A DNA stretch of 26,124 nucleotides from a virus (Duplodnaviria > Heunggongvirae > Uroviricota > Caudoviricetes). Position 1 is the first letter of the stretch; every line of letters begins with the position of its first letter. The stretch lies in the IMG/VR virus record IMGVR_UViG_2698536443_000009, positions 1 through 26,124 of that record, one strand, 5' to 3'. The notes beneath the pieces are model-generated. The model searched no databases and was not told the origin of the DNA. It was given only the letters and a program-made list of their open reading frames with translations. A program made the position numbers and the translations under genes. Positions 4,326 to 26,124 of the stretch are shown piece after piece.

Positions 4326-4343
4326 CCTATCGGAGCATTAAGC

Positions 4344-5597: not shown

Positions 5598-5603
5598 TTT
5601 AGG

Positions 5604-5627
5604 TGGGGCTTCGGCCCCATTTTTATT
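5604..5627 (+). terminator. Intrinsic terminator-like hairpin directly after the coat gene (GGGGC-UUCG-GCCCC followed by TTTTTATT)
   Basis: Seen directly: tGGGGC ttcg GCCCCa at 5604-5619 followed by a T-run at 5620-5627, starting 7 nt after the coat stop codon. Confidence 0.65.
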
Positions 5628-5638
5628 GGGAGAAGACA

Positions 5639-5827
5639 ATGGCACGAACAATGCTCTATAAGCCGGGCAACATGATCACCTGTGGTCAGTTTGCTGTCGA
5701 TTACATCATTGTTGATGACGAAGAAGTTAAATCTCACCTGAAAAAAGGTTGGGTAAAAACTCCTGAAGAAACCGCAACGAAGCAAAAAGTGGCTAAGGCG
5801 GAAGAAGATGGCGAAAACGAAGGGTGA
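5639..5827 (+). CDS. Small hypothetical protein (62 aa) between coat and gp4-like gene
   Basis: The track ORF 5603..5827 starts inside the terminator hairpin. The internal ATG at 5639 (MARTMLYKPGN...) is preceded by GGGAGAAG and is the more plausible start. Its 3-prime end overlaps the next gene by 20 nt. No function recognised. Confidence 0.5.
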   Translation: MARTMLYKPGNMITCGQFAVDYIIVDDEEVKSHLKKGWVKTPEETATKQKVAKAEEDGENEG

Positions 5828-6269
5828 TCTCGTTCTAAAGGCTTTACGAAAAGCCGGGCTGTATTCCAATGCCACGTTGACAGATGCTGACCCTCAGGCA
5901 ATTGAAGATGCCATTAATGACCTCGAAGACATGATGGCAGCATGGCAGGCGAAAGGTATCGAGCTTGGATATCAGTTTGCTGATACAGAAAACGGCATCA
6001 TGCCGTTACCTGACGATGATTCAGGTATCCCTGCATGGGCAAATGATGGCGTCGCTTTGAAACTCGCTGTGCAAGTGTGCATGGATAACGTCATTCATCC
6101 GTCAGACGCTCTCCTTACCGCTGCTGACAGTGCATATCAGACAATCTGTATCGCTTTAACCAAAATACCACCACTTGAGCGGCGAAATGACATGCCTCGC
6201 GGTAGTGGTAACAAAAGCGCGTTTACGTGGAATCGGTTTTACATCGAGAAAGATGATCCGAGTACGTGA
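5808..6269 (+). CDS. Head completion / tail adaptor protein, P22 gp4-like
   Basis: 153 aa. The N-terminus KTKGDLVLKALRKAGL..ATLTDADPQAIEDAINDLEDMMAAWQ parallels P22 gp4 ([41 protein letters not shown]); the C-terminal GSGN motif is also shared. Confidence 0.8.
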   Translation: MAKTKGDLVLKALRKAGLYSNATLTDADPQAIEDAINDLEDMMAAWQAKGIELGYQFADTENGIMPLPDDDSGIPAWANDGVALKLAVQVCMDNVIHPSDALLTAADSAYQTICIALTKIPPLERRNDMPRGSGNKSAFTWNRFYIEKDDPST

Positions 6270-6278
6270 GGTGAATAA

Positions 6279-7697
6279 ATGCCGATTCAGCAACTTCCGC
6301 TTATGAAAGGTGTCGGCAAAGACTTTCGAAACGCCGACTATATCGACTATCTGCCAGTGAATATGTTGGCTACACCCAAAGAAATCCTCAACAGCAGCGG
6401 ATATCTTCGCTCATTCCCGGGCATTGCCAAACGTTCTGATGTGAACGGTGTATCTCGAGGCGTCGAGTACAACATGGCGCAGAATGCTGTCTATCGTGTG
6501 TGTGGCGGCAAGCTCTACAAAGGCGAAAGCGAAGTCGGTGATGTTGCCGGAAGTGGTCGCGTATCAATGGCGCATGGTCGAACATCACAGGCGGTAGGCG
6601 TTAATGGTCAACTGGTCGAGTATCGCTATGATGGTACGGTTAAAACCGTCTCAAACTGGCCTACAGACAGCGGATTCACGCAGTATGAGTTAGGCTCAGT
6701 CCGCGATATTACGCGCTTACGTGGGCGTTATGCGTGGTCAAAAGACGGAACTGATTCATGGTTTATCACTGACCTTGAAGACGAATCACATCCTGACCGA
6801 TACAGCGCACAATATCGTGCAGAATCGCAGCCTGACGGCATCATCGGCATCGGAACATGGCGAGACTTCATCGTCTGCTTTGGCTCATCGACGATTGAAT
6901 ATTTCTCCCTGACGGGCGCAACCACTGTTGGTGCCGCTTTGTATGTCGCCCAGCCATCGTTGATGGTGCAAAAAGGAATCGCCGGAACTTACTGCAAAAC
7001 GCCGTTTGCTGATTCCTATGCGTTCATCAGCAATCCGGCAACAGGTGCGCCGTCTGTGTATATCATCGGCTCCGGCCAGGTATCACCAATCGCCAGCGCG
7101 AGCATTGAGAAAATTCTCCGCTCCTACACTGCTGATGAACTGGCTGATGGTGTGATGGAGTCTCTGCGATTTGATGCGCATGAGCTGCTGATTATCCATC
7201 TTCCGCGCCATGTTCTCGTGTACGACGCATCTTCAAGCGCCAATGGTCCGCAATGGTGTGTGCTGAAAACAGGCCTGTATGACGATGTGTACCGCGCTAT
7301 CGACTTCATTTACGAAGGCAATCAGATAACGTGCGGCGATAAGCTGGAATCCGTGACCGGGAAACTGCAATTCGATATCAGCAGCCAGTATGACAAGCAG
7401 CAGGAACACCTGCTGTTTACTCCACTCTTCAAAGCAGATAACGCCAGATGCTTTGATCTGGAGGTGGAATCATCGACGGGTGTTGCTCAGTACGCTGACC
7501 GCCTTTTTCTCTCTGCAACCACTGACGGCATAAATTACGGACGTGAGCAGATGATTGAGCAGAATGAACCGTTCATTTACGACAAACGCGTTTTGTGGAA
7601 GCGTGTCGGGCGCATCAGGAAAAATGTCGGCTTCAAACTTCGCGTTATCACGAAGTCACCTGTCACTCTGTCTGGCGCTCAGATAAGGATTGAGTAA
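6279..7697 (+). CDS. Tail hub protein, P22 gp10-like
   Basis: 472 aa, the same length as P22 gp10, located between the gp4-like and gp26-like genes. Identification is by synteny and size. Confidence 0.75.
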
Positions 7698-8650
7698 TGG
7701 CGGATTCGAATCTCAATGTGCCGGTAATCATTCAGGCTACACGGCTCGACACATCAATCCTTCCACGCAATATCTTCTCGCAGTCGTATCTGCTTTACGT
7801 TATCGCACAGGGTACTGATGTTGGTAACGTGGCTAACAAGGCCAACGAAGCAGGGAAGGGGGCTTATGATGCACAGGTGAAGAATGATGAGCAGGATGTC
7901 ACCCTTGCAGACCATGAATCCAGAATTGAAGCTGCTGAAGCAACTCTCATCAATCATGAACATAGAATTGCAGCAGCGGAAAGCACTCTTGCAGAACATG
8001 AAACAAGGATTACGGCTGCTGAAACAGAGCTGGCTGATCACGAGACGCGAATTGCTGCCAATGAATCTGAGTTAGCAAACCATGATGCGCGCATAACTCA
8101 GAATACAACCGATATCGACGCACTTGATACCAGGCTCACAGCGGCAGAGGGAAGTATTTCGACGCTACAAAGCACAGCTGGTGATCACTCAACAAGAATA
8201 TCTGCGCTTGAGTATGCCACCACGCGCAAGAAATCAGAGGTTGTTTACTCAGGGGTATCGGTAACAATTCCGACAGCGCCTACCAACCTTGTTAGTCTGC
8301 TGAAAACGCTCACGCCGTCATCCGGCACGCTGGCACCATTCTTCGACACCGTTAACAACAAGATGGTTGTGTTCAACGAGAACAAAACCTTGTTCTTCAA
8401 GCTGTCGATCGTCGGGACGTGGCCCAGCGGAACCGCCAACAGGTCAATGCAACTAACATTTTCCGGCTCTGTTCCTGACACACTGGTAAGCAGTCGCAAC
8501 TCGGCGACAACGACCGATAACATCCTGTTAGCTACGTTCTTCAGCGTGGATAAAGACGGCTTTCTTGCCACAAATGGCAGCACGTTAACCATTCAGTCAA
8601 ATGGTGCGGCGTTTACTGCCACAACCATCAAGATAATCGCGGAGCAGTAA
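7697..8650 (+). CDS. Tail needle protein, P22 gp26-like, with extended C-terminal domain
   Basis: The N-terminus [43 protein letters not shown]...[14 protein letters not shown] is near-identical in pattern to the P22 gp26 N-terminus. It is followed by coiled-coil heptad repeats and a about 150 aa C-terminal domain absent from P22 gp26 (233 aa). Confidence 0.85.
7901..8110 (+). repeat. Five imperfect tandem 42-nt (14-aa) repeats encoding the coiled-coil core of the tail needle
   Basis: Translated units [14 protein letters not shown] / [14 protein letters not shown] / [14 protein letters not shown] / [14 protein letters not shown] / [14 protein letters not shown], read directly from the ORF. 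Confidence 0.55.
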
Positions 8651-9105
8651 TGATTCAGTTCAAACCAACGCGAAACATCGACCTGATCGAAGCTGTCGGA
8701 AATCACCCTGACATTATTGCCGGAAGCAACAACGGTGATGGATACGACTACAAGCCTGAATGCCGTTACTTTGAGGTTAACGTGTACGGTCAGTTTGGCG
8801 GCATTGTTTACTATCAGGAAATTCAGCCGCTTACATTCGATTGCCACGCCATGTACCTGCCAGAGGTTCGTGGATTCAGCAAGGAAATCGGGCTGGCGTT
8901 CTGGCGATACATTCTGACTAACACCACCGTTCAGTGCGTCACATCGTTCGCTGCGCGCAAATTCCGCCACGGTCAGATGTACTGCGCAATGATTGGCCTT
9001 AAGCGTGTAGGAACCATCAAGAAATACTTCAAAGGCGTGGATGACGTGACGTTTTACAGCGCCACACGCGAAGAACTAATCGACTTCCTGAATCACGGGA
9101 GATAG
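8650..9105 (+). CDS. gp14-like protein (position of P22 gene 14)
   Basis: 151 aa ORF between the tail needle and ejection-protein genes; its ATG overlaps the preceding stop (TAATG). Assignment is by synteny only. Confidence 0.55.
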   Translation: MIQFKPTRNIDLIEAVGNHPDIIAGSNNGDGYDYKPECRYFEVNVYGQFGGIVYYQEIQPLTFDCHAMYLPEVRGFSKEIGLAFWRYILTNTTVQCVTSFAARKFRHGQMYCAMIGLKRVGTIKKYFKGVDDVTFYSATREELIDFLNHGR

Positions 9106-9107
9106 CT

Positions 9108-9803
9108 ATGTTATATGCATTTAAGCTGGGCAGAAAACTGCGCGGCGAGGAACCTTATTGCCCTGAAAAAGGCGGGAAAGGTGGCAGCTCTGATAAAAGC
9201 GCAAAGTATGCCGCAGAAGCTCAGAAGTATGACGCAGACCTGCAAAATAAACAGTGGCAGACGATCATGAAAAACCTTGCTCCGTTCACGCCGCTTGCGG
9301 AGCAGTATGTTAACCAGCTTCAGAATCTTTCCAGTTTAGAAGGACAGGGGCAGGCACTTAATCAGTATTACAACTCTCAGCAGTATAAAGACCTTGCAGG
9401 TCAGGCGCGTTACCAGAGTCTTGCTGCTGCGGAGGCGACGGGAGGACTTGGCTCGACAGCCACAAGCAATCAACTGGCCACGATTGCCCCGACTCTCGGT
9501 CAGTCGTGGTTGTCGAACCAGATGAGCAACTACAACAATCTGGCAAACATTGGCCTTGGTGCGCTGCAAGGTCAGGCGAACGCCGGGCAGACATACGCCA
9601 ACAACATGAGCAGCATTGCGCAGCAAAGCGCAGCTCTTGCCGCTGCTAATGCCAATAAACCATCAGGCCTTCAGACAGCAATTAGCGGCGGAGCTTCAGG
9701 GGCTATGACTGGCGCTGCTCTTGGCTCTATTGTTCCCGGGCTTGGCACTGGATTAGGTGCGGCAATTGGCGGCGGACTTGGCCTGCTTGGCTCGTTGTTT
9801 TAA
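9108..9803 (+). CDS. Ejection (internal head) protein, P22 gp7-like
   Basis: 231 aa (P22 gp7 is 229 aa), first of three consecutive ejection-protein genes, with a Gly/Ala-rich hydrophobic C-terminus. RBS GGGAGA. Confidence 0.7.
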   Translation: MLYAFKLGRKLRGEEPYCPEKGGKGGSSDKSAKYAAEAQKYDADLQNKQWQTIMKNLAPFTPLAEQYVNQLQNLSSLEGQGQALNQYYNSQQYKDLAGQARYQSLAAAEATGGLGSTATSNQLATIAPTLGQSWLSNQMSNYNNLANIGLGALQGQANAGQTYANNMSSIAQQSAALAAANANKPSGLQTAISGGASGAMTGAALGSIVPGLGTGLGAAIGGGLGLLGSLF

Positions 9804-9812
9804 GGGGTAATC

Positions 9813-11201
9813 ATGGCTACTTGGCAAGGATCAAATGGCGGATTGTTGGCTGGTATCGGCGGTGTCAACTCAAACGCTCCGAGCGTAAATGACATCGGCA
9901 ATACGCTTCAGCTTATCAGGCAGAACAATGATATTGAGCGTTCAGGCGCTAACAATGTTGGGCTGACTGCTTTGCAAGGCCTTTCAGGTATTGCGGGGGT
10001 GTTTCAGCAGGAAAAGCAGGCTCAGCGGCAGAAAGAATTTCAGCAGGCATACGCTAATGCTTATGCGTCTGGTGATCGCGGTGCTTTGCGTCAGTTGGCT
10101 ACTCAATATCCAGACCAGATTGAATCCGTTCGTAAAGGCATGGGATTCATTGATGAAGACCAGCGCAATTCTATCGGCACCTTAGCGGCTGGCGCTCGTC
10201 TTGCGGCATCGTCTCCAGAAGCAATGCAATCATGGCTGCAAAACAACGCCAAGGAACTGACTCGCGTCGGTGTTGACCCTAACAACGTTGCTCAGATGTA
10301 TCAGCAGAATCCTTCAGGATTTGGTGAGTTTGTTGATCACCTTGGGATGGCTGCGCTTGGTCCGATTGATTACTTCAATGTTCAGGACAAGATGGCTGGT
10401 CGTGAGATTGATCGCGGAAAACTTGCAGAGACAATCCGCAGCAATCAGGCTGGCGAGGCGCTAACAGCACGAGGCCAGAACATCACGATGCGCGGTCAGG
10501 ACTTATCTGCTTCTACTGCGCGACGCGGGCAGGATTTGGCAATGCAGCGAGCGTCAACAAGAGGAACCGCTGGGAATGATGAGCGTACAGTTCAGTTATC
10601 AGATGGCAGAACTGTAACGGTAGGCGGGAAACTTCACGGCGCTGGGGCTAATGCGTTCTACGAAGGCATCGACAACGAGGGGAATATGGTTCGCGTTCCT
10701 GCCAGTTCAATCGCAGCGCCTGCAACATCGTCTGCATCAGCACAAAACTATGCCATGAAGAAGGATATCGACGCGATCGCAAATGCAGACGCTTCTGCTC
10801 TCGATTTCATGACAGGAATGACAGGCGGTGCAGGTAATCCAGCAATTGGTGCTGATGTTCGCAGCCGATTAACAGGAAAAGAGCAGCGCCAGTTATATAA
10901 CTCAGCACAACGTATTCAGGGCAGAATGCAGAATCAGGGTGTGGCGGCAGCAAGGGACATGGGTGCCAGTGGTATTAACACCGTTGCAGAAGCGAAGATG
11001 TATTTTCAGGGGATGCCGCAGGTTGACTATTCAAGCCCGGAGGCTATGCAGCAGTCGATTCGTGAGATTCAGGAATACACCAACAATTACAACCAACAAT
11101 ATAACGTTAATGTTGGTAAATCTCAGCGGCAGCAATCTCAACCTGCACAGGTATCACAGCCAGCAGCCAGCAGTAACTTTTCTTCACTATGGGGTGATTA
11201 A
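9813..11201 (+). CDS. Ejection protein, P22 gp20-like
   Basis: 462 aa (P22 gp20 is 471 aa), in the syntenic position. RBS AAGGGG. Confidence 0.7.
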
Positions 11202-13198
11202 TGGCTAAAGCATGGAAAGATGTTATCGCCTCTCCACAGTATCAGGCGTTAGCACCAGAACAAAAAGCGCAGGCTCAGGAGCAATACTTCAATGAAGTCG
11301 TGGCCCCGCAAGCCGGAGAAAATGCAGAGCAGGCTAAGCAAGCTTTCTATGCTGCCTATCCATTGCCATCTGTGCAGCAAGTGGAGACACAGCAACCAGT
11401 AGCACAGCAACAACCACAGCAAAGTGGATTTATGTCTGATCTTGGCGAAGCAGTAAAAGAGACTGGTCGCGGACTGGTGCAGGCTGGCGTGAACGTGGCA
11501 AACATACCTGCATCAGTCGCCGATGCTGTAACAAGCGCGGCGGCTTGGGCTGGCGGTAAACTCGGCATTGGCGATGGTACATATCAACCAGCGCCACGAG
11601 TAACAACGCAGGGATTAGAGCAGGACTTTGGCCTTCAGCAAGGTGCGCTGACTCCACAAACGACAGAGGGAAGGGTATTTGCTGAAGCATTGCCTTACCT
11701 CACTCCTGCTGGAGTTGAGAGAGCTGCAACACAGGCACCAACACTTGCTGGTCGAATTGCTCAGGGTGCAACTCGCCTTCTCGCAGAAAACGCAGTTGGA
11801 TCACTTGCTGCAAATAGTGCGAAAGATGATGCGGAAGCACTCGCCACCGATTTAGGCGTTGGTGTGTTGGCTGGCGGTGCTATTAACGCTGCCGGACGTG
11901 GATTAGGTGCTGCTTATCGTGGCGTTCGTGGTGCTATTGCGCCAGAAGCGCAGCAGGCTATCAGATTTGCAGAGCGTGAAGGAGTGCCTCTGCACACCAC
12001 AGACCTGTTACAACCTACTTCCCGCGTCGGAAAAATGGCTCAGACTACAGCAGAAAATATCCCTCTGGCTGGCACAAGCGGAATGAGAGCAACGCAACAG
12101 GAAGCGAGAAGTCAGTTGGTGCAGAGATTTGCCGATAAATTCGGGGAGTATGATCCAGCGGTTGTTATTGACAGCCTTAAAGCGAAAACATCAGGAATTC
12201 GTCGTGCTGCCGGTAATCGACTGGAGCAGGTTCAGAATGCTATGGCTGGAGTAAACATTCAACCTGCGCGAGCAATTCAGCAGATTGATACAGAAATATC
12301 TAACCTGCAGAAGCTTGGTAAGGTTGCTGATAACGAGACTATTTCAAAACTTCAGTCATATCGTGATGAGCTTGTTCGCAATGCTGGTCCTGATGGTCCG
12401 GTCAATCTGGATTTGAAGCAATTAAGCGATCTGCGCAGCCAGTTCAGAATGGACGTGAAGGGTGAGCGACCAGTGTTACCAAACCGTTCCGATGCTGCCA
12501 TTCAGCGAGTTTACAAGGCGATGACCGACGATATCAATGGTGCCATTGGTCAGAATCTTGGCAATGATACTCTTCGTAAATATCAGCAGGCCAATGCCGT
12601 CTACGCTGACGAAGCGGCGAAACTAAAGAATACCAGGCTGAAGAATGTTCTCATGAAAGGCGACCTGACGCCGGAAGTTGTCAACAACATGCTATTCAGC
12701 AAGAACAAATCGGAAATTAAGACTCTGTATAACTCAGTTGGTCGTGTTGGCAGGGCGCAAATGCGCAATGGCATCATTGGAAAGGCGATGGAGAAATCAG
12801 GTGGTTCCCCTGACCAGTTCCTTCGGCAACTTAACATCCTGCAAAACCAGACTGGCATCACATTTAAAGGTCAGGAAGCCGCTTATCTGAAAGGATTGAA
12901 AAACTACCTGCAATCCACGCAACAGGCTGCAAAAGCAGCAGTAACAACACCAACAGGGCAGCAAACCATCCCGTTCATTATCGGGTATGGGACGGCAATG
13001 AACCCGGCGACAACTGGCGCAGCGGTAAGCTACGGACTTCTTACTCGCGCCTATGAGAGCGAGCCATTCAGAAATGCAATGCTCCGAATGGCAAACACAC
13101 CACGCGGATCAACAGCGTTTGAGAAAGCCATGCAGCAGGCGCAAAAGGCCATTAACGCCCTGACTCAGGGTGCCAAGTCTGATGCGTTGTCAGAATAG
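11201..13198 (+). CDS. Ejection protein, P22 gp16-like
   Basis: 665 aa (P22 gp16 is 609 aa), last gene of the ejection trio, with a TAATG overlap to the preceding gene. Confidence 0.7.
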   Translation: MAKAWKDVIASPQYQALAPEQKAQAQEQYFNEVVAPQAGENAEQAKQAFYAAYPLPSVQQVETQQPVAQQQPQQSGFMSDLGEAVKETGRGLVQAGVNVANIPASVADAVTSAAAWAGGKLGIGDGTYQPAPRVTTQGLEQDFGLQQGALTPQTTEGRVFAEALPYLTPAGVERAATQAPTLAGRIAQGATRLLAENAVGSLAANSAKDDAEALATDLGVGVLAGGAINAAGRGLGAAYRGVRGAIAPEAQQAIRFAEREGVPLHTTDLLQPTSRVGKMAQTTAENIPLAGTSGMRATQQEARSQLVQRFADKFGEYDPAVVIDSLKAKTSGIRRAAGNRLEQVQNAMAGVNIQPARAIQQIDTEISNLQKLGKVADNETISKLQSYRDELVRNAGPDGPVNLDLKQLSDLRSQFRMDVKGERPVLPNRSDAAIQRVYKAMTDDINGAIGQNLGNDTLRKYQQANAVYADEAAKLKNTRLKNVLMKGDLTPEVVNNMLFSKNKSEIKTLYNSVGRVGRAQMRNGIIGKAMEKSGGSPDQFLRQLNILQNQTGITFKGQEAAYLKGLKNYLQSTQQAAKAAVTTPTGQQTIPFIIGYGTAMNPATTGAAVSYGLLTRAYESEPFRNAMLRMANTPRGSTAFEKAMQQAQKAINALTQGAKSDALSE

Positions 13199-13267
13199 CT
13201 TCGCAAACACCAGGAACGTGCAAAAACCAAATATGTAGAACGCAATATTCATCATATCTCTTTGCAT
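13190..13267 (-). CDS. Candidate small hydrophobic peptide (25 aa, MQRDMMNIAFYIFGFCTFLVFAKLF) downstream of mnt
   Basis: On the minus strand, GGAGG (13276-13272) lies 4 nt before an ATG at 13267; the ORF runs to a TGA at 13192-13190. It is too short for the ORF track. It occupies the position where P22 carries sieA/hkcC. Confidence 0.25.
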   Translation of the reverse strand: MQRDMMNIAFYIFGFCTFLVFAKLF

Positions 13268-13287
13268 AAATCCTCCGTAATGGATGG

Positions 13288-13551
13288 TTAGTTGCTGTCT
13301 TTTTTATATAGCTCCTTTAGCGTGTCAAAGACAATTTTCTTAACCATATCGGATTGTTGTTCTGCCATACGCTCTGCATCGTCAATGTAAACTGATGCAG
13401 AGCTTTGTTTATCCAGTGATTCTTCAATCGCTGCAATTATCTCTGAGTTCAGAGACCTGTTATTCATCTTCGCACGCTGTTTAATCTTCGCGTGGAGTTC
13501 ATGCGGAAGTCTCAAGTGAAACTGCGCCTCGTCGTATTTGCTGTACATCAT
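13288..13551 (-). CDS. mnt: Mnt repressor (Arc/MetJ ribbon-helix-helix family), P22 immI region
   Basis: From the MMYSKYDE start, the protein aligns along its length with P22 Mnt: FHLRLPHELHAKIKQRAKMNNRSLNSEIIAAIEESLDK versus FNFRMPMEVREKLKFRAEANGRSMNSELLQIVQDALSK, and DDAERMAEQQSDMVKKIVFDTLKELYKK versus NDAERLADEQSELVKKMVFDTLKDLYKK. The track ORF is extended upstream to 13632; the start at 13551 (or 13548) has a GGTGAGG RBS. Confidence 0.85.
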   Translation of the reverse strand: MMYSKYDEAQFHLRLPHELHAKIKQRAKMNNRSLNSEIIAAIEESLDKQSSASVYIDDAERMAEQQSDMVKKIVFDTLKELYKKDSN

Positions 13552-13962
13552 CAATGCCTCACCTAATGGGTGGAATGGCATCGTAAAACCTACTGTACAA
13601 ATCAACAATCGTACCGTTTCGGTATGTAACAAACGCCAACCGTAGCCATGCTGCGGCGATTCCTTGTATCTGGAGCAAATTAAATGACAGATATTATAAA
13701 TAGGAATTTTTATTTAATAATATTTGAAAATTAAAATCATGGACGATAGGAATAAAAGTAGTACTTGTCATTTTTAAGTGACGCATTAAACGCATAAAGC
13801 ATATGTCTGTTGATCAAGATTCTTACTTGTTGTAAAATAATTGTCCTGTTCATGTTGCATGGTTTTAAAATGAATAGAAGATTATTTTTCAAAACAATTG
13901 CATCTTTGTCTGCAGTCATTCCGTTTTCTTCAATATCTAAATTTTCAAACAGGATGACTAAT
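13552..13962. promoter_or_regulatory. AT-rich control region between mnt and the tailspike gene (expected Pmnt, possible operator remnants and tailspike promoter)
   Basis: About 410 bp of AT-rich non-coding sequence with several inverted repeats (CACC-N6-GGTG near the mnt start; AAATGACA ... TGTCATTT separated by about 75 bp). P22 has arc and ant here; they are absent. Confidence 0.35.
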
Positions 13963-16194
13963 ATGCCTGATATAACTCCAAATGTTGTAATTGGGATGCC
14001 TTCGCAACTCTTCACTATGGCTCGCTCTTTTAAAGCGGTAGCCAATGGCAAAATTTATATAGGAAAAATTGACACTGACCCGGTAAATCCTGAAAACCAA
14101 ATTCAGGTTTATGTAGAGAACGAAGACGGTTCTCACGTTCCTGTTTCGCAACCAATCATCATTAACGCTGCTGGTTATCCGGTATATAACGGACAGATTG
14201 CCAAATTCGTAACCGTGCAAGGCCATTCAATGGCTGTTTATGATGCATACGGTGCGCAGCAGTTCTATTTTCCTAATGTGCTGAAGTATGACCCTGATCA
14301 GTTTAGAACAATAATAGAGTCAAATTATGGTGCGGGGCATGTTGGTACTTCGTCTGGACTAACAATTCAGCAGTTGATTGATTCTTTTATTGTAGTTACA
14401 CCACAAATGTTTGGTGAATCTGGAAAGTCAAATGATTCAACAATAGCAATTAACTCTGCATTGGACTATCTTGAGTCTCTAGGTGGTGGGATTATTTATC
14501 TTCCTCCAGGTAAATATTACGTCAGCATTGAAAAATCAGGTCATAATTATTCATGCATTAGAGTTCCCGCTAACGTAACTTTCTGTGGGGCTGGTGCTGG
14601 ATCTACCATCATTCAGAGACTACCCACTGAGAGGGGGATGGATGGTGTCTTGATAACAAATAAATATTATGATACTAGAACTGGCTATGGAGCTGCCGGC
14701 AATATTGTTTTTAGAGATTTTACAATCACTGACGGTAGCGCAACCCCAACAAGGGATTATGGTGATTTAATCGGTTTAGGTCATAGCAAAAATGTAACTA
14801 TAGAGAGAGTGGAGCAAGGGAGACATGATCAACATTTTGTTGATATTGCAGGATCAACCGATGTAACAGTCAAAGACTGTCACGGGTCGTGTGATATGGA
14901 GGTGGACCATATTACGTGGAATTGTGATATACAGATTGATTCCGCTCAACCAAACGCAATACTTGGAATTAAAGTTGATGGCACACCTAGCACAAATATA
15001 ATTATTAGCGGAAATAAACTTCAAAACAAAAGCTCAAATTTGCAAATTGAAATAGGACATGCTGGGGGAGTATATAGAAATATTATTATTTCTGATAACA
15101 TACTTGATGGGGCATATTTTCAAGACTCATCAGTTATTGGTTGTAACTCAACAACAGCTACCATTATCAATTTGAGCATAAATAACAATCAAATACTAAC
15201 AAATAATATAAATTCAAGAGGTGTTAATCTTTATTGTCTTGGGAATAACGAAAAACTTATTGGTATTTCTTTTAGTAATAATATTATAAGAGGTTATGCT
15301 AGGATTGGTGCATGGTTTGGGACTAATGGTAATTATACTGGAACGAAGTTTCCTCATGATGATGTAACAATAATAGGAAATAAATTCTTTCTAACATCGC
15401 CTTCATCTGGAACATTTGTTCAAGGTGTTGTTGTTGCTGGTTGGCGATCTGTTGTATGTAGTGATAATATAGTTGAGATATATTCTGATAATGAATTTTC
15501 TTCAGGGTGTTCGGTGATATCAGTTTGGAAAAATGGTAGTGCTAAGGTAAGTGATAACAATATCTCTAGAACATGTGGTGCAACACCTGACGTATCATCT
15601 TCAGTTATTTCGTTGATACTAATCACCCCTGAACCTTCCAGCATTGATAAGGCGTCATCAATCCATATTAATGGAAATGCTTTCTTTGGAGATATTCCTA
15701 GATATGCAATAAATCACAAAGAAGGGTGGATTGAAGGATATGACATGATAGTTGTATCAGGCTCTCATGGTAGATTTAACCAAACATTTATAGGCACGCA
15801 AGGGGCGCATATGTATGAAACGTACCCAATTTCTGATATGACAAATTTCAATCAACCAGTGTCAATAAATGGTCAATATAGAAGGCAGGTATACAGAGGA
15901 AATATTTACAAGTCAACGTTCAATTTGAAGAAAAATGGAAGTGAAACAAGTGGGGCTAAGGTGGATTTTTTTATATCTAATGAACGCTCAAAAATAACAG
16001 GTTCTGAACAATTGAATGTAGCATATATATCTCCAACTGAGTCTGTGGGAATCACCGCTACATCAATAGATTTGTCATCAGGAACACTTAATATAATTAC
16101 TGGAACAAATGGTGTATCTATGAATTTAAATCCATCCAATAAGCAGCCTGAAATAAGAAATAGCGCGTATATAAGCGCAAGGATTTCCATTTAA
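13963..16194 (+). CDS. Tailspike protein: P22 gp9-like head-binding N-terminal domain plus divergent receptor-binding domain
   Basis: [97 protein letters not shown]...[10 protein letters not shown] matches the P22 tailspike N-terminal domain closely. AGGA RBS 8 nt upstream of the ATG at 13963. The rest is AT-rich and unrelated to P22 gp9. The track ORF starts further upstream at 13810. Confidence 0.9.
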
Positions 16195-16985
16195 AATTCA
16201 GAAATTAGCCATAAAAAGCATGAAGTCTATCATCCAAGTGTCAATCGATCGATGACTTGCGGTGGTTGATGAGACAAAACTGAGACACACAAAGCTTTGC
16301 ACTGGATTGCAAGGCTTTGTGCTCTTCGATAGTGGTTAAGGTGGATCACTCCACCTTTTCATCAAGCCAGTCTGCCCACCACTGCATCATTTCTCTGCGC
16401 TTAATGTAGCGGATGCCTCACTATCACATAGTGATGGTTCATTACTGCTTTGTAGAATTGATAGAGAACTGAGGATAAAAAGATATCCCAAAACCCCAAA
16501 ATCTCATCTTTAGGATTTGCAGAAAGGGAGGCGTGAACAGATACCTGCGCATGAAGACGGAACTAGTCCAGATGTGATATTTGTGGTGATCACATACATC
16601 ATTAACGATGCTCGTTATGGTGAGTTTGATGACTACCCGCTGAAGTGAAAATTGTGTTGTGTACCAAATTGCGTACCAAACTAAAATCACAAATCATGAA
16701 ACCCTTGTTCATGGCGGTTCTCAGGGGTGTTGCGCGTAATCGTGAAACAAAAAGGTAGATTGTTGCTTACCGTCATTCATCATTAGGTTAAATCCGTTAT
16801 TTCTGCTGTCTGCCAGAGTATCAAATATCACCGTGCTAATCAGCTTTAGCGCCACAATTTGGCAGCGAGTGGCAACAGATCATGTCAGATAAAAATGAGA
16901 GGGTAGTCACATTTTCTTGCACTTTATTCCAGCCAGTTCATAAGTATTTCCGTAAAAAGAACAGCTATTTGAAACTCCTGAGGGT

Positions 16986-18158
16986 TTGCTGTTGAAACGC
17001 CGTCTTATTATTGCTGCTTCTTTGTTCGTTTTTAACTTATCGTCTGGTTTTGCGGCGGAAAACATTCCTTTTTCACCTCAGCCTCCAGAGATTCATGCCG
17101 GGTCCTGGGTATTGATGGATTACACCACCGGTCAGATCCTCACCGCGGGTAATGAGCATCAACAGCGCAATCCCGCCAGCCTGACAAAGCTGATGACGGG
17201 TTATGTCGTGGATCGCGCTATCGATAGTCATCGCATTACGCCAGACGATATTGTCACCGTGGGGCGCGATGCGTGGGCGAAAGATAATCCGGTGTTTGTC
17301 GGTTCTTCACTGATGTTTTTGAAAGAGGGCGATCGCGTATCGGTACGTGATTTAAGCCGTGGTTTAATTGTGGATTCCGGAAATGACGCTTGTGTTGCTC
17401 TGGCTGACTATATTGCCGGTGGGCAACGGCAGTTTGTTGAAATGATGAACAACTATGCCGAGAAGCTGCATCTCAAGGATACGCATTTTGAAACAGTGCA
17501 TGGTCTGGATGCACCTGGCCAGCATAGCTCGGCTTATGATTTAGCTGTGCTTTCTCGTGCTATCATCCACGGCGAGCCCGAGTTTTATCATATGTACAGT
17601 GAGAAAAGTCTCACCTGGAACGGTATCACCCAGCAAAACCGTAACGGGTTGTTGTGGGATAAAACCATGAATGTTGACGGCCTGAAAACGGGTCATACTT
17701 CTGGTGCCGGGTTTAATCTCATTGCTTCGGCTGTAGATGGGCAGCGTCGTCTCATTGCAGTGGTAATGGGGGCTGACAGTGCAAAAGGTCGTGAGGAAGA
17801 GGCAAGAAAATTACTGCGTTGGGGGCAACAAAACTTTACTACGGTGCAAATTTTGCACCGTGGGAAAAAGGTCGGAACGGAACGCATCTGGTATGGCGAT
17901 AAAGAAAATATCGACCTGGGAACGGAACAAGAGTTCTGGATGGTGCTACCGAAAGCCGAAATTCCACATATCAAAGCCAAATATACCCTTGATGGTAAAG
18001 AACTCACCGCGCCAATTAGCGCCCATCAGCGGGTAGGGGAAATTGAACTTTACGACCGTGATAAACAGGTGGCGCACTGGCCGCTGGTTACCCTGGAATC
18101 TGTCGGGGAAGGCAGCATGTTTTCTCGCCTGAGTGATTATTTCCACCATAAGGCCTGA
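16986..18158 (+). CDS. dacD: D-alanyl-D-alanine carboxypeptidase DacD (PBP6b)
   Basis: Signal peptide, SLTKLMT (SxxK active-site motif), SGND and KTGHT motifs typical of class A low-molecular-weight PBPs. Length and sequence fit E. coli DacD. Start is TTG at 16986 or the TTG at 16992 (giving 388 aa). Confidence 0.93.
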   Translation: MLLKRRLIIAASLFVFNLSSGFAAENIPFSPQPPEIHAGSWVLMDYTTGQILTAGNEHQQRNPASLTKLMTGYVVDRAIDSHRITPDDIVTVGRDAWAKDNPVFVGSSLMFLKEGDRVSVRDLSRGLIVDSGNDACVALADYIAGGQRQFVEMMNNYAEKLHLKDTHFETVHGLDAPGQHSSAYDLAVLSRAIIHGEPEFYHMYSEKSLTWNGITQQNRNGLLWDKTMNVDGLKTGHTSGAGFNLIASAVDGQRRLIAVVMGADSAKGREEEARKLLRWGQQNFTTVQILHRGKKVGTERIWYGDKENIDLGTEQEFWMVLPKAEIPHIKAKYTLDGKELTAPISAHQRVGEIELYDRDKQVAHWPLVTLESVGEGSMFSRLSDYFHHKA

Positions 18159-20607: not shown

Positions 20608-20964
20608 TTAACAACAGCCTTCTTCTGTATGCAGCAAGGCAAAAAGTTCTGTAACTCCATTGTTATTAACTGCACTGGTTACTAACACGTTGTGCGCTCC
20701 AGCTTCCCGTAACCAACTTTTCACCAAAGATATTTGTTCCATGCTGGCTAAATCTGCTTTGGTTACTACTCCAATGACCGGGTGATTCATGGCCCGGTAG
20801 GGCGTTTTTACCTCTAATTCCTGCTTCAGCGCTGAGATTCCTGCTTGTTGCCAGAAAAGCAGGCACCTGCCGTCTGAACGGTATCGATCCGGAAGCGTAT
20901 CTGCGCCATATTCTGAGCATACTGCCGGAATGGCCCTCCAACCGTGTTGACGAACTCCTGCCAT
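20608..20964 (-). pseudogene. EutP/PduV-like GTPase C-terminal fragment (yoeF-like remnant); only about 20608..20830 is protein-like
   Basis: The C-terminal part of the ORF (HPVIGVVTKADLASMEQISLVKSWLREAGAHNVLVTSAVNNNGVTELFALL) resembles the C-terminal region of EutP/PduV-type proteins. The N-terminal part is the antisense of the IS66-like fragment and is W/R/C-rich, so the gene is truncated. Confidence 0.45.
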
Positions 20965-21020
20965 GGAACGTAGTTCTCACCAATAAATAAGCGTCAATAC
21001 GGTGCTCCGTTGACGCTTAC
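20840..21020 (+). mobile_element. IS66-family insertion sequence remnant: transposase C-terminal fragment plus terminal inverted repeat
   Basis: The + strand frame ends ...CRLNGIDPEAYLRHILSILPEWPSNRVDELLPWNVVLTNK*, resembling IS66-family transposase C-termini (LPWN motif). The following 30 bp end in ...CGCTTAC, whose reverse complement GTAAGCG... matches the IS66-family terminal repeat start as I recall it. There is no intact transposase upstream. Confidence 0.5.
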
Positions 21021-21210
21021 TTTAATCCGTTTTCTGAGCTTAGATTTTTCTGTTCCTACCCAGACCGTGGATTTGGAATTCATTTTTTGTCAGGTCAATG
21101 CTAATCGTTAAAACGGCCATAACGCACCTCCACTGGAAGGTTTATCAGTAATATCCTACCGTTGCTTCATGGTCGGGGCGTCCATTCCATTATTATCGGT
21201 TTTCCTTTCT

Positions 21211-21248
21211 GTTTATAAATGAAAACGCCAGCTGTATTCAGGCTGGCG
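21211..21248 (-). terminator. Intrinsic terminator downstream of yeeW (minus strand)
   Basis: Minus-strand hairpin CGCCAGC cugaauaca GCUGGCG (21248-21226) followed by UUUUCAUUUAU. Confidence 0.5.
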
Positions 21249-21404
21249 TCAGGAGAAATGAAGCCTGTTGAGTGAGATTCACCGGTTCTGGTGCAGAAGC
21301 TGCAGATGGCGCAGGGTAAGGACATCTTCTCTTGCCTGCTTAATACAGGACAACAGTGCTGTTTCTGTGGTTAATGGCACTATACCCTGTATCACTGCAT
21401 TGTC

Positions 21405-21599
21405 TTACAGCAACTGGTGAGGGCTGGCATAAGTTGCCGGTGTTTCGGTAGAGTCACGGTCATCCACCACGCGGAGTGAATAACCGTTTTCAGCGGCCTT
21501 ATTAATCAGTTCAGTGATATTAACACCATCAATGTCAACGACAATGTGCCCCATATCCAGCGCCTGTACGTTAACGCTGTCGGCTTCCAGTGTCATCAT
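21405..21599 (-). CDS. yeeW: YeeW-family small protein (64 aa), CP4-44-like element
   Basis: 64 aa ORF overlapping the stop of the cbtA-like gene; matches the size and position of E. coli yeeW, the last gene of the CP4-44 toxin-antitoxin block. Confidence 0.8.
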   Translation of the reverse strand: MMTLEADSVNVQALDMGHIVVDIDGVNITELINKAAENGYSLRVVDDRDSTETPATYASPHQLL

Positions 21600-21970
21600 T
21601 TCGCCTCCGGATACTTACCCAGGGTAATGTTATTTACCGTTCTGTAATTGTCGCGGGTCATCAGGCCGGTCGCCCTGCGAGCCCGGAGGATATCGATGCT
21701 GTTTATTAACTGAGAGCGGGTACAGGCGCTGAATCCCGGCTGGTCGGTACGCACCAGCGCGTATTTTTCCACGAGAAAGTTCACCGCATCACACAGTGAA
21801 ATGCCTGCCTCAATATGCTGCTCAATCACACGTTCATCGGCAAAAGGTGTGTCATTCAGTGTGAGGCCATAGTGCTGGTCCAGCAGTCGGGACAGCAGTA
21901 TCTGCCAGATTTCAACAGGAGACGGGCGAGAACTGGCCGCCTGCCCGGGTAATACAGGTAATGTTTTCAT
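21596..21970 (-). CDS. cbtA: CbtA (YeeV) family toxin, inhibitor of FtsZ/MreB polymerisation
   Basis: 124 aa, the same length as E. coli YeeV, directly downstream of the cognate antitoxin gene in the conserved yeeT-yeeU-yeeV-yeeW order. Confidence 0.88.
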   Translation of the reverse strand: MKTLPVLPGQAASSRPSPVEIWQILLSRLLDQHYGLTLNDTPFADERVIEQHIEAGISLCDAVNFLVEKYALVRTDQPGFSACTRSQLINSIDILRARRATGLMTRDNYRTVNNITLGKYPEAK

Positions 21971-22058
21971 ACTGAAGATTTTCCTGATATGCAGATATAA
22001 AAATGGAAAAGTGGCGTGGTGAAAACACCAGGCCGTAGCAGAAGGCTATTCTGGAGAG

Positions 22059-22427
22059 TTAATTTTTCATTTCGGGCGTCGGATAAACAGCCAGATAAAC
22101 GTAACCACAACTGCTGAGGGTATCGGCTTTGCAGGTCAGCCCTTTTGCATACAGCGTGACGGTATGCTGATGGCGGGGATTCAGTTCACCGCTGGTGAGC
22201 ATGAGTTCCAGTTGTTTCATCAGCAGCGGAAAGGCCTGGTCCAGGTGGTACGCATCTGCATCGCTGAACAGGCCTCTGATACCGGCGCGGTCGGCAAGGT
22301 AATGCAACCGGTTACCCTCCTGCACCAGACGTGCCCCGAAACAGGGCGTCACGGTGCAGGGCAGCCCCCACCAGGGGCGGTCGTGATTGTCGTCGGGAAG
22401 TGTTGTCCCGGGGAGTGTGTCTGACAC
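22059..22427 (-). CDS. cbeA: CbeA (YeeU) family antitoxin
   Basis: 122 aa beginning MSDTLPGTTLPDDNHDRPWWGLP..., consistent with the YeeU/YfjZ/YafW antitoxin family; adjacent to the toxin gene. Confidence 0.88.
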   Translation of the reverse strand: MSDTLPGTTLPDDNHDRPWWGLPCTVTPCFGARLVQEGNRLHYLADRAGIRGLFSDADAYHLDQAFPLLMKQLELMLTSGELNPRHQHTVTLYAKGLTCKADTLSSCGYVYLAVYPTPEMKN

Positions 22428-22500
22428 GATAAAATCCTTACAGAAAATCGGCTAAGAATGGTCCGGTAGTGGCGATAATTCTGCTCATCAGAATTCCCAC

Positions 22501-22722
22501 TCAGTTCAGGGTGACGCTCATCAGCCGGACATACGGACCAAAACTGTCCTTACGGCGTTCAGCAAACACGGCCAGCACACCGGGAATATCCTGCACTTCA
22601 CGACCGGTATACGCTTCAGCACTGCCGTGCCAGCGGTATTTACCGGTACAGAACGGAAAAAGACGGGATGTCGGATGTTGTTGGTGAATACGCATGGCTT
22701 CACCACGGGTGATAATTTTCAT
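22501..22722 (-). CDS. yeeT: YeeT family protein (DUF987), 73 aa
   Basis: 73 aa ORF immediately upstream of the antitoxin gene, the conserved position of yeeT/ykfF-type genes. Confidence 0.8.
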   Translation of the reverse strand: MKIITRGEAMRIHQQHPTSRLFPFCTGKYRWHGSAEAYTGREVQDIPGVLAVFAERRKDSFGPYVRLMSVTLN

Positions 22723-22784
22723 AATGGGATACCTCTGAAGACAGAAGATAAAAGTGAAAACAGGTGTGATGTGGTTGTGAAGGG

Positions 22785-23276
22785 TTAAAGCAGACCATGT
22801 TCGGCAAAGGAGAAAACCTGGTTGCCACCGACTATCAGATGGTCCGGCACCCGGATATCCACCAGGCCCAGTGCCTGTACCAGACGTTCGGTGATAAGCC
22901 GGTCTGCCTTACTGGGTGTGACTTCACCGGACGGGTGATTGTGTGCCAGTACCACGGCAGCGGCATTGTGGTACAGGGCGCGTTTAATCACTTCCCGGGG
23001 ATGGACTTCCGTGCGGTTGATGGTGCCGGTGAAGAGGGTTTCACCGGCAATCAGCTGATTCTGGTTGTTCAGATACAGCACCCGGAATTCTTCACGCTCC
23101 AGTCCCGCCATGTTCAGAATCAGCCATTCCCGTGCTGCACGGGTGGAGGTGAAGGCCACGCCGGGTTCATGAAGATGGCGGTCCAGGGTTTTCAGGGCCC
23201 GTTGAATGAGGCTGCGCTCGCCGGGCGTCATCTCTCCGGGCAGAAAGGAAAGTTGTTGCATTGTGCTTCTCTCCAT
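22785..23276 (-). CDS. yeeS: RadC-like JAB-domain protein (YeeS/YkfG/YfjY family)
   Basis: Contains the JAMM-type motif HNHPSG plus conserved Glu/Asp context (VLAHNHPSGEVTPSKADRLITERL), typical of RadC-like proteins of CP4 elements. Confidence 0.88.
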   Translation of the reverse strand: MERSTMQQLSFLPGEMTPGERSLIQRALKTLDRHLHEPGVAFTSTRAAREWLILNMAGLEREEFRVLYLNNQNQLIAGETLFTGTINRTEVHPREVIKRALYHNAAAVVLAHNHPSGEVTPSKADRLITERLVQALGLVDIRVPDHLIVGGNQVFSFAEHGLL

Positions 23277-23756
23277 TCAGTCGATGATGCGCATAATGGC
23301 GCTGCATTCCGGATGCTGCAGGGCGTAATCCCGCAACCGGTAATAATGGACCGTCATGGCATAATTCTCCGTACGACAGGCATGATGACTGTACGTCATC
23401 AGACAGGCGGCAATACCGGCGGCTTCCGGGCTCATTTCTGCGCGGTTACCGTTCATGGCATTGAACAGTACCCATGTTTCGTCATCATCGTCATCCGGTT
23501 CGGGTGCCATAAATGCCCCGCCGTTGTTCAGGGTGTACAGATTCCAGATACCACCGCAGTAGTCTTCGCACAGACGGTCCATCCAGCCGAAGACACGGGG
23601 CTCCAGGGTCACCCACTGTGGAATGAGGCCAAAATGCTGCGGCCAGAAGCTGATGCGCTGTTCATCAGGGACGAGGCTGGCAACCAACTGAGGCGGATTA
23701 TTCTCTGGTGTTGTAGCTGAATAAATTGTGGGGGTATTCTGAGAAACGGTTTTCAT
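23277..23756 (-). CDS. Antirestriction protein, KlcA/ArdB-like (YfjX/YafX family)
   Basis: 159 aa with an acidic patch (PEPDDDDDETW) and conserved tryptophans, in the position occupied by antirestriction genes in CP4-6/CP4-57-type elements, directly upstream of the RadC-like gene. Confidence 0.75.
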   Translation of the reverse strand: MKTVSQNTPTIYSATTPENNPPQLVASLVPDEQRISFWPQHFGLIPQWVTLEPRVFGWMDRLCEDYCGGIWNLYTLNNGGAFMAPEPDDDDDETWVLFNAMNGNRAEMSPEAAGIAACLMTYSHHACRTENYAMTVHYYRLRDYALQHPECSAIMRIID

Positions 23757-23837
23757 GAGATAACTCCTTAAATAACAAATAAATGTGTGTTTTTCAGGAA
23801 CGAAAGCTGAATGATTCCCTCACTCAGGGAAACGGCA

Positions 23838-24659
23838 TCAGCGCAGGCTCTCCAGCATCGTTTCTGCCATCACCCACAATGCGCGATTGAGCTTAATGTC
23901 GGTATCAATGCTGTGAATGGCCCGGGTATGGATACGTTTTCCTTTTGCACTGCGACCGGAAATCCCGCCTTTCAGCATATTCTCCTGGATGGTCTGATAT
24001 GCGCTCCACAGGTCCTTACCGTAATCCTCCCGGCGTCGCGGCGTCAGAATGTCGGCGGTGGTGACGGGCTGATGTTCGTCACCATAACGGTAAGTCAGTG
24101 CCGCCTGTGCCAGCGCCTGGCGTGCCGGTGGCGGCAGGACCAGCGACTGCATGGCATCACGCTTCTCCTCTATCCGGTCAAACACGCCCACCACCTCGTA
24201 AGCCCCTTCGATAACTTTCTCCACTACATTTCCCCGGTGTGGAACACGCACTTCCCCCAGAGACTGGCCACAGACGCACCCGTTCTGGCAGACGAACCTG
24301 AAGTAACCCGGCAGCATCTGGTAGCTGGAGGTACCGTCATGAGAGTTGAGCAGAATAATTTCAGGGACATGTTCTCCGTTTATCTCTCCGGCCCGCCGCA
24401 GACGCAGCATGTGTTTTGTGTATCCCCGGCGGCCCGGGTCGCGCACACGGGTCTGGCAGGCGAAGAACGGCTGAAAGCCTTCCCGCTGCAGATTTTCCAG
24501 GACGGTAATGGTGGGAATGTACGCATACCGTTCACTGCGGGAGGTGTGCCGGTCTTCCCCAAAAATACTGGGTACATGGCGTATCAGTTCTTCATGTGTC
24601 AGCGGACGGTCACGGCGTATCTGGTTTGCAGCATAACCAAAACGACTTGCTAATCGCAT
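23838..24659 (-). CDS. DUF932-family protein (YafZ/YfjQ-like), conserved core gene of CP4-type integrative elements
   Basis: 273 aa ORF heading the conserved DUF932-antirestriction-RadC-TA gene block. Assignment is from memory of the family and from synteny. Confidence 0.7.
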   Translation of the reverse strand: MRLASRFGYAANQIRRDRPLTHEELIRHVPSIFGEDRHTSRSERYAYIPTITVLENLQREGFQPFFACQTRVRDPGRRGYTKHMLRLRRAGEINGEHVPEIILLNSHDGTSSYQMLPGYFRFVCQNGCVCGQSLGEVRVPHRGNVVEKVIEGAYEVVGVFDRIEEKRDAMQSLVLPPPARQALAQAALTYRYGDEHQPVTTADILTPRRREDYGKDLWSAYQTIQENMLKGGISGRSAKGKRIHTRAIHSIDTDIKLNRALWVMAETMLESLR

Positions 24660-24704
24660 ACTTTGCTCCTTATCGGTGGTTAAGATTTACTGGTGCAATA
24701 AATG

Positions 24705-24736
24705 AAAAAAGCCGCGTCTCCCGGAGAAGACGCGGC
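24705..24736 (-). terminator. Intrinsic terminator downstream of the two-gene cargo operon (minus strand)
   Basis: Minus-strand hairpin GCCGCGUCU ucuccggg AGACGCGGC (9-bp stem) followed by UUUUUU (plus-strand A6 at 24705-24710). Confidence 0.6.
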
Positions 24737-24879
24737 CTGACGGGTGAAATGAATAAGGTTTATTGTCTGAGAGGCCTTTCACTGGCGAGCCACGCATTAA
24801 GCGGCTTTCCGGTAACAATGGCTGGGGCTGTATTTACCTTTGATATTAATAATGTGCAGAGAAACGCATGGTTTACTCC

Positions 24880-25290
24880 TTAGATTTTAAGTTTGTCCTG
24901 GGCTACAACGACAGGTTTTCCGGATGTGTCGATGACTCCTACCGTCGGTACGCCATTTTTGATTTCGAAGAACGGTTTGTTGCTACCTGAGCACAGTTGA
25001 TTGTCCCCGTATTCAATCATTTGTGCTTTCCCGGTTTTCAGGTTAACTACCGAGACAGTGTAGTCGTAGCACCAGGCACCACCACGTTCAAGCACGAAAA
25101 CATAGCTGTTATCTTTATAGTTGAACTGATTCTTTGTCTGGCAATTCATACCGTCAATTTCGGTACAGGAAAACGCTTCTGTAGTATTAACGTATTTGAT
25201 GTTATTTGGCAGTTTTACTTGTTTCGCAGTAGCGAAGACAGAGAACAGAATAGTTACAGCAACGAGTAAAGTTTTGATAAAAGTTTTCAT
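24880..25290 (-). CDS. Secreted Cys-containing protein of unknown function (136 aa, N-terminal signal peptide)
   Basis: MKTFIKTLLVAVTILFSVFATA is a signal peptide; the mature part has four Cys and no recognised family. AT-rich relative to neighbours. It lies 15 nt downstream of the Ivy-like gene. Confidence 0.6.
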   Translation of the reverse strand: MKTFIKTLLVAVTILFSVFATAKQVKLPNNIKYVNTTEAFSCTEIDGMNCQTKNQFNYKDNSYVFVLERGGAWCYDYTVSVVNLKTGKAQMIEYGDNQLCSGSNKPFFEIKNGVPTVGVIDTSGKPVVVAQDKLKI

Positions 25291-25305
25291 GATAGACTCC
25301 TTAAA

Positions 25306-25794: not shown

Positions 25795-26124
25795 TGTAAA
25801 TATTCTTCCGTTGTAAATGGCGCTGGAAAATTTCTCATCAGTGAAACCTTCCGGAAGTTTCCCCCCCTTGTATGATGTATATCGCCAGTATTTTATTTCA
25901 TCCCGGCTGTAATTTTTATATTCCCCGGCACGTGCAATAACGCTGACCAGAGATATAAGGCTCATTAATAACTTTACAGGTAATTTCATAATTAAATTTC
26001 CAGTGAGTGAATTGACAGGTGAGGGGTAAAACTTTCTCTCAGGTAATATATATCTGAAAATATTTTCAATAACACCAGACAGGAAAAACACCACCACAGG
26101 CGGTGGCGTTTCTTTGGGGCGTCT

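Follow-up and report, generated by a model that had tools for sequence, protein, structure and literature searches.

A rare β-helix receptor module on the tailspike of a P22-like Escherichia coli prophage, with the O82 O-antigen as candidate target

The DNA analysed here, referred to as the window, is a stretch of 26,124 nucleotides (nt) from a tailed virus (IMG/VR record IMGVR_UViG_2698536443_000009), found at NCBI as contig CYFN01000063.1 of assembly GCA_001283445.1. Its central feature for this study is a tailspike gene (Table 1). With a probability of about 0.75, we read this gene as the functional tailspike of a P22-like prophage between sbcB and dacD of E. coli, bearing a rare β-helix receptor module that is a putative depolymerase with the O82 O-antigen as its candidate substrate.

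A P22-type virion module lies upstream of the gene. It comprises the C-terminal part of the terminase, the P22 portal, coat, gp4, gp10, a needle of Sf6 type with a knob, gp7, Inj_translocase and a gp16-family protein (Pfam names in this region include P22_portal, P22_CoatProtein, Phage_stabilise, P22_gp7, Inj_translocase and Phage_P22_gp16). Between the virion module and the tailspike, a Mnt/Arc repressor gene is encoded on the minus strand (13288–13632), followed by a 330-nt non-coding gap of 26–28% guanine and cytosine (GC) content (13633–13962). Downstream, the 3′ end of sbcB marks the return to host DNA, near 16735, and dacD (16986–18158) and sbmC come next. Because the virion module is upstream and host DNA follows, the tailspike is the last gene of a prophage between sbcB and dacD; it stands at the module's distal end, as is usual for P22-like tailspikes.

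The maximal open reading frame (ORF) over the gene spans 13810–16194. We chose the ATG at 13963 as the start, which is the same ATG as in the RefSeq orthologues and is preceded by a Shine–Dalgarno-like motif. A scan for promoters and terminators around the gene returned none that exceeded the shuffled expectation.

Table 1. Features of the tailspike gene and the prophage end, in window coordinates
Feature	Position	Strand	Basis
Shine–Dalgarno-like AGGA, with the ATG at 13963 8 nt downstream	13951..13954	+	read from sequence
Tailspike gene, 743 amino acids plus stop	13963..16194	+	ORF list
Head-binding (particle-attachment) domain, residues 1–113	13963..14301	+	Pfam PF09008, E = 1.1e-65
Allele recombination breakpoint interval; alleles differ by 6–10% upstream and ~0.6% downstream	14229..14481	+	allele differences
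Linker, residues 114–128, still common to HK620; likeness to characterised tailspikes stops here	14302..14346	+	blastp and blastn
Predicted right-handed parallel β-helix with N-terminal cap helix, residues ~143–605; putative catalytic and receptor-binding body	14389..15777	+	
HDQHFVD motif (H288, D289, Q290, H291, D294), candidate active-site rung	14824..14844	+	37-sequence alignment
Q324-I-D326, next rung; candidate second catalytic carboxylate, 32 residues past D294	14932..14940	+	Q324 in 36/37, D326 in 35/37
H366, following rung	15058..15060	+	conserved in 34/37
Predicted C-terminal all-β domain, residues ~614–743, family-wide; SDGTN motif, C-terminal ...RTSG.I.A..SI	15802..16191	+	model and alignments
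IntS-type integrase vestige, last ~25 codons (KRREMMQWWADWLDEKVE and stop)	16328..16402	-	tblastn with MSHS 472 IntS, 80% over residues 368–392
Approximate prophage/host junction (attR), sbcB–dacD site	16735..16764	.	prophage-free genomes match from 16735

Anchor domain, base composition and predicted fold

Head_binding is the sole Pfam domain in the protein, and the sequence matches of its N terminus in the Protein Data Bank (PDB) are Sf6 gp14 (residues 1–121), P22 gp9 (residues 3–117) and entries related to them, with the HK620 N terminus likewise matched. Identity over residues 1–113 is 95.5% to HK620 and 93.8% to Sf6, against 73.9% to P22, so the domain is HK620/Sf6-like. A preliminary description of the sequence had called the first ~110 residues strongly P22 gp9-like, with similarity ending there. 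The conserved head-binding segment is indeed present, but it is of HK620/Sf6 type, and likeness to HK620 runs on to residue ~128 (blastp). At the DNA level, homology to HK620 covers 13972–14345 at 90.4% identity, with none further 3′ by blastn; likeness to phage APC_JM3.2 stops earlier, at 14301, which is residue 113. With Pfam and PDB matches confined to the N terminus and HK620 likeness stopping at ~128, the idea that the protein is a mosaic, in which a head-binding domain is fused to an unrelated receptor-binding part, holds. Residues 1–113, together with the linker to ~128, would act as a conserved adaptor by which the presumed trimer attaches to the P22-type virion tail.

The tailspikes of HK620, Sf6 and P22 share with this protein the head-binding domain, the plan of anchor, β-helix and C-terminal β domain, and the location at the end of the virion module, whereas past residue ~128 no sequence likeness to them was detectable (HK620 blast and phage search). 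Database labels can obscure such a boundary. The full protein matches PHROG 8280, annotated as ‘tail spike protein with colanic acid degradation activity’, at E = 6e-108, and residues 130–478 and 479–743 searched alone have no match to it at E ≤ 10. We rejected the label for the receptor part because the match is carried by the shared head-binding domain alone; the case is an example of annotation transfer that misleads for mosaic tailspikes.

Base composition changes along the gene. The virion genes (241–13198) have a GC content of 50.7% and a third-codon-position GC content (GC3) of 56%; tailspike residues 1–113 are encoded at 42.5% GC, and residues 114–743 at 35.9% GC with a GC3 of 24%. The receptor domain lies 8.7 standard deviations (SD) under the 1,890-nt windows from the rest of the contig, which average 50.6% with an SD of 1.7%, and the lowest-GC window of that length in the contig is 13674–15563, in agreement with the earlier remark that the C-terminal part is markedly AT-rich compared with virion genes of about 50% GC. 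Such AT-richness is not general among coliphage tailspikes, as the receptor domains of HK620 and APC_JM3.2 have GC contents of 45.7% and 44.7%. Residues 114–743 are rich in I (11.9%), S (11.3%), G (10.5%) and N (8.7%), but the signal is strongest at synonymous sites and is therefore not a by-product of this composition.

We modelled the C-terminal part with AlphaFold. A first model from 7 sequences was mediocre (predicted local distance difference test (pLDDT), 72.9); a second, single-chain prediction from an alignment of 37 family sequences reached a pLDDT of 89.8 and a predicted template modelling score (pTM) of 0.88. Adding 114 to a residue number in the model gives the full-length number. 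The second model shows a β-helix and, after a dip in confidence at the domain border, a C-terminal all-β domain (pLDDT 88–95). Foldseek searches against PDB and BFVD gave the same picture of the helix, with many tailspikes and depolymerases among the fold likenesses. The receptor domain is accordingly predicted to be a right-handed β-helix of the pectate-lyase/tailspike type. This is the fold that the preliminary description had proposed and had offered to give up if structure prediction returned no β-helix. PF12708 (Pect-lyase_RHGA_epim) has no match in the window protein at E ≤ 1, and it matches 9 of the 37 family members and a truncated E. coli entry (P0003). The C-terminal domain would form a β-sandwich and probably stabilises the trimer. 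By its anchor sequence, its gene position and a predicted structure in which a central β-helix is followed by a C-terminal β domain, the protein qualifies as a P22-like tailspike.

Rarity and exchange of the receptor module

The full gene occurs in 7 of 5,426 complete E. coli genomes, and the upstream region and head-binding domain are matched in 2,850 of them. The 50,697 phage records searched contain no enterobacterial phage with a match to the receptor domain. The sole full-length phage relative is AGN51528 of Vibrio phage eugene 12A10, a hypothetical protein encoded beside tail genes (37% identity over residues 158–743); the other phage matches are weak, stay within the N-terminal portion of this domain and come from the tailspikes of phages of Brevibacterium, Bacillus, Streptomyces and Rhodococcus. 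Near-identity to a well-characterised tailspike, which would have spoken against the mosaic as first described, was not what these searches returned.

Larger collections add few relatives. In a collection of 5.8 billion proteins, the C-terminal part has only 8 word-indexed matches, and an exhaustive profile search gave 43 cluster representatives at E < 1e-30. Species representatives in GTDB contributed Paenibacillus loci only (32–45% identity), and IMG/VR contributed 10 loci. The eugene 12A10 protein and the relatives from metagenomes and Paenibacillus prophages are homologous over the whole receptor module and keep its conserved motifs, but they have other N-terminal anchors and other hosts, and all are uncharacterised. 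Across the family, the anchors include T7 tail-fibre N, Tail_spike_N, Mtd_N, tail-collar and Head_binding, from which it follows that the receptor module has been shuffled between types of phage.

A 69%-identical allele, P0002, keeps a full-length frame on a metagenomic P22-like contig, where int and xis come after it. On this contig (JGI 3300076478, Ga0564113_00127), positions 3–539 are an inverted 5′ end of the tailspike relative to 689–2476, an assembly hairpin artefact; the protein looks truncated at its N terminus because the head-binding domain is inverted at the contig end. In both this contig and strain GDSC2BY4G, a convergent integrase and early-left genes directly follow the tailspike. 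That is the order of the circular phage genome rather than of a prophage integrated beside int (689–4110 on the metagenomic contig), and it points to tandem lysogeny, to an attP at another position or to a phage genome that is free.

Alleles within E. coli record how the module moves. We compared the window with the alleles of VE-T2 and GDSC2BY4G. The first 267 nt of the gene hold 17 of the 29 nucleotide differences in VE-T2 and 26 of the 41 in GDSC2BY4G (binomial p = 3e-9 and 1e-14, respectively); both alleles have zero differences in gene nt 268–518 and sparse ones beyond. Synonymous divergence (dS) is 0.19–0.28 for residues 1–128 versus 0.012 for residues 129–743. The low dS at the 3′ side, the high dS at the 5′ side and the sharp breakpoint between them imply that the same receptor cassette has recently been placed on divergent head-binding alleles. 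The breakpoint interval reaches from the head-binding domain's conserved end across the linker into the first part of the receptor module.

The identical 743-residue protein is present on at least 24 public contigs and on at least 3 different upstream backbones. Alleles that have the receptor domain in common but not the 5′ 267 nt bear out the earlier proposal of horizontal acquisition of a new receptor specificity. The gene probably arose when cassette recombination, acting where the head-binding segment is conserved at its 3′ end, joined a low-GC receptor module to an enterobacterial anchor; the same module has since moved among different P22-like backbones and attachment sites. Both the architecture and this mode of evolution are textbook for P22-like phages, and they confirm rather than change the picture of tailspike modularity; what is new is the receptor-domain family and its probable specificity. 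The locus is also a clean case of convergent receptor domains, with breakpoints within an interval of ~250 nt at the head-binding boundary.

As for the immunity genes of these backbones, the immI region of the window consists of mnt alone, and other backbones with the identical tailspike have arc and an antirepressor, to which some add SieA and a PIN protein.

Candidate target and chemistry

Tailspike receptor domains set phage host range, and are raw material for serotype diagnostics, engineered phages or tailocins and anti-virulence enzymes. We assigned serogroups to the seven carrier genomes from their annotated wzx and wzy genes. MSHS 472, 2017.18.04CC, ET729 and GDSC2BY4G are O82. The O82 wzy gene is present in 7 of the 5,426 genomes, and its overlap with these four carriers gives a hypergeometric p of 3e-11 that is uncorrected for clonality and inflated by it, because three O82 carriers and the O131 strain OHT76-1 share one prophage remnant at argW. 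In GDSC2BY4G, the gene is part of an intact-looking virion module at a site other than argW (3724403–3726634, NZ_CP136025.1). The argW remnant and this separate prophage thus amount to at least two independent O82 events.

As a control, we used the second tailspike (TSP2) of AV101 (Agtrevirus, Ackermannviridae), which has been reported as O82-specific (Sørensen et al. 2023, PMC10791037). Its receptor domain is found in only two of the genomes, 18AR0366 and GDSC2BY4G, both O82. Because the association recovers O82 for this domain, we count the method as validated. The two spikes have in common a probable target serogroup and, for AV101 TSP2, a receptor domain confined to O82 E. coli genomes, whereas their anchors and phage families differ. 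Homology between them was considered and rejected: the BLASTP match to AV101 TSP2 (OQ973471) comprises only a 70-residue linker/cap stretch (E = 2e-5). GDSC2BY4G has a second prophage spike (1942901–1944283), the receptor domain of which is 69% identical in DNA to that of AV101 TSP2, so that this O82 strain hosts two unrelated spike receptor domains.

On this association, we consider the O82 O-antigen the best candidate target, at odds slightly better than even. The preliminary description had read the gene as a receptor spike, which stands, and had left its target undetermined; a concrete candidate can now be named, with four of seven carriers being O82. The O82 repeat is reportedly a Glc-Gal-Glc-GlcNAc tetrasaccharide with phosphodiester-linked glyceric acid. 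If O82 is the target, the tailspike would provide a second, unrelated O82-directed spike and reagent, one unrelated O82 spike having been reported so far.

Some observations weigh against this interpretation. The other carriers are O48 (VE-T2 and VE-T10) or O131 (OHT76-1), and the count of four in seven excludes the strain of the window itself, whose contig stops short of the rfb cluster. The ratio of non-synonymous to synonymous divergence (dN/dS) in the receptor domain is 0.40–0.58, a value drawn from only 11–15 substitutions. The prophages of the O48 and O131 carriers are disrupted by insertion sequences or truncated, and a switch of serogroup following lysogeny is plausible for these strains.

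The same kind of tailspike could instead recognise a receptor other than O82, either another O-antigen (O48, O131 or that of the host of the window) or a co-varying capsular (K) polysaccharide. This alternative is possible but distinctly less probable than O82. It gains from the three carriers of other serogroups, from the chance that the three O82 strains with the argW remnant descend from a single ancestral event, and from the ability of P22-like phages to target capsules, as with the endosialidase of CUS-3. Set against it are the enrichment of O82 in at least two independent contexts, one of which is an intact-looking prophage; the damaged state of the prophages in the non-O82 carriers; and the recovery of O82 by the same logic for the AV101 TSP2 domain. 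O48 had been entertained as the shared host serogroup and was dropped, as only two carriers are O48; O82 then proved to be enriched.

The candidate chemistry was approached through conserved residues on the predicted helix. The only solved proteins with sequence-level likeness to the helix are AlgE4, AlgE6 and related epimerases and lyases (E = 1e-8 with the single sequence and 1e-12 with a profile), and the A-modules of AlgE are its closest likeness. The alignment is anchored by NVTIERVE in the tailspike and DVTIERVE in AlgE4 and AlgE6. In the phmmer alignment, H291 lies opposite Y149 of AlgE4 and D294 opposite D152, and AlgE4 His154 is replaced by Ala, or by Cys in relatives.

D294 is present in 37 of 37 family members and H291 in 36 of 37, although members are only 22–37% identical to the window protein. 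Polar residues kept in at least 80% of the 37 are R219, E223, R224, D257, D268, H288, D289, Q290, H291, D294, Q324, D326 and H366; the usual Asn ladder is likewise present across the alignment. Rungs were placed from the DSSP strand register of the model (E177–182, E207–212 and E246–250 in C-part numbering), in which strands 291–296, 321–326 and 360–364 are equivalent on three successive rungs. Because they sit on these equivalent strands, the conserved residues are expected to line one face, as in an active-site groove. The set from D257 to H366 would form a conserved polar groove where AlgE epimerases have their active site.

A distance of 32 residues separates D294 from D326, which lie on adjacent rungs; for the pair D339/E372 of HK620, as named in PDB titles, it is 33. 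The carboxylate pairs of the P22 and Sf6 tailspikes have a similar 33-residue spacing. By this analogy and the modelled rungs, an endoglycosidase that uses D294 and D326 as its carboxylate pair seems the most likely chemistry. The candidate His and Asp residues are at an AlgE-like position here, which sets them apart from the HK620 pair. In such an endoglycosidase, the β-helix would bind a serotype-specific surface polysaccharide and then cleave it, which would open a path for the virion towards the outer membrane.

Identity as an AlgE-type epimerase or alginate lyase was rejected. The motif YG(F/I)DPH(D/E) is absent: HFVDIA aligns to YGFDPH, with Tyr replaced by His and His by Ala. Unlike the A-modules of AlgE4 and AlgE6 and the alginate epimerases and lyases (PDB 2pyg, 5lw3 and 8ja4), the tailspike thus has His for Tyr149 and Ala or Cys for His154; it has no R-modules or Ca-binding repeats by Pfam, and it is virion-attached whereas AlgE is secreted.

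An enzymatic β-helix need not be a glycoside hydrolase. It could act by AlgE-like β-elimination or epimerisation, or could strip off a substituent, for instance if it were a phosphodiesterase directed at the phosphoglycerate side group of O82; gp12 of phi29, which cleaves teichoic acid, is an analogue of the latter. We regard this as unlikely: the AlgE Tyr149/His154 pair is not conserved, the O82 backbone is said to be without the uronic acid that β-elimination needs, and the spacing of D294 and D326 on adjacent rungs resembles that of the HK620 pair. A related and equally doubtful possibility is that the family is an uncharacterised class of depolymerase, in which an AlgE-related helix has a His/Asp centre in place of the Tyr/His machinery and represents, beside the unrelated AV101 TSP2 domain, a second and evolutionarily independent attack on the O82 O-antigen with its phosphoglycerate, possibly non-hydrolytic or by removal of a substituent.

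More improbable still is a non-catalytic β-helix adhesin that serves in receptor binding alone. The cluster of charged and His residues on three rungs is near-invariant in a family of such low identity, which is typical of active sites, and the characterised P22-like tailspikes are, to our knowledge, all enzymes. Least probable is that a defective prophage left the gene behind as a decaying relic, AT-rich only through amino-acid bias or mutational drift: several carriers do have clearly degraded prophages, and I, N, S and K-type residues, which have AT-rich codons, abound in the protein, but the frame is intact, its copies on the public contigs are 100% identical, it follows a complete-looking virion module in the window, the GC3 contrast is a signal of synonymous sites rather than of amino acids, and the P0002 allele keeps its full-length frame on another P22-like contig.

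Integration site and neighbouring genes

At the right end of the prophage, homology to the attP region of phage APC_JM3.2 covers 16578–16764 and ends at the junction with host DNA. At least 80% of the 791-nt stretch from the tailspike stop to dacD (16195–16985) is matched in 460 of the 5,426 complete E. coli genomes, which makes a related prophage end a common feature of the sbcB–dacD site. The IntS vestige in this stretch is 75 nt long and starts 134 nt past the tailspike stop. It is the right limit of a 3.2-kb block (13200–16403) that is 99% identical to the argW prophage remnant in MSHS 472.

The sbcB–dacD site is ~20 kb from the O-antigen (rfb/gnd) cluster, with the his operon between them, and at this short distance the prophage and the serogroup genes are genetically linked.

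The far end of the window (20608–26124) is host flanking DNA, arranged like that of K-12. Here, a fragment of pduV/eutP, truncated and on the minus strand (20608–20790), is followed by a CP4-44-like island with the cbtA toxin (21596–21970), the cbeA antitoxin (22059–22427), radC, an antirestriction gene and a DUF932 gene. At the corresponding place, the carriers VE-T2 and MSHS 472 have a full pdu operon.

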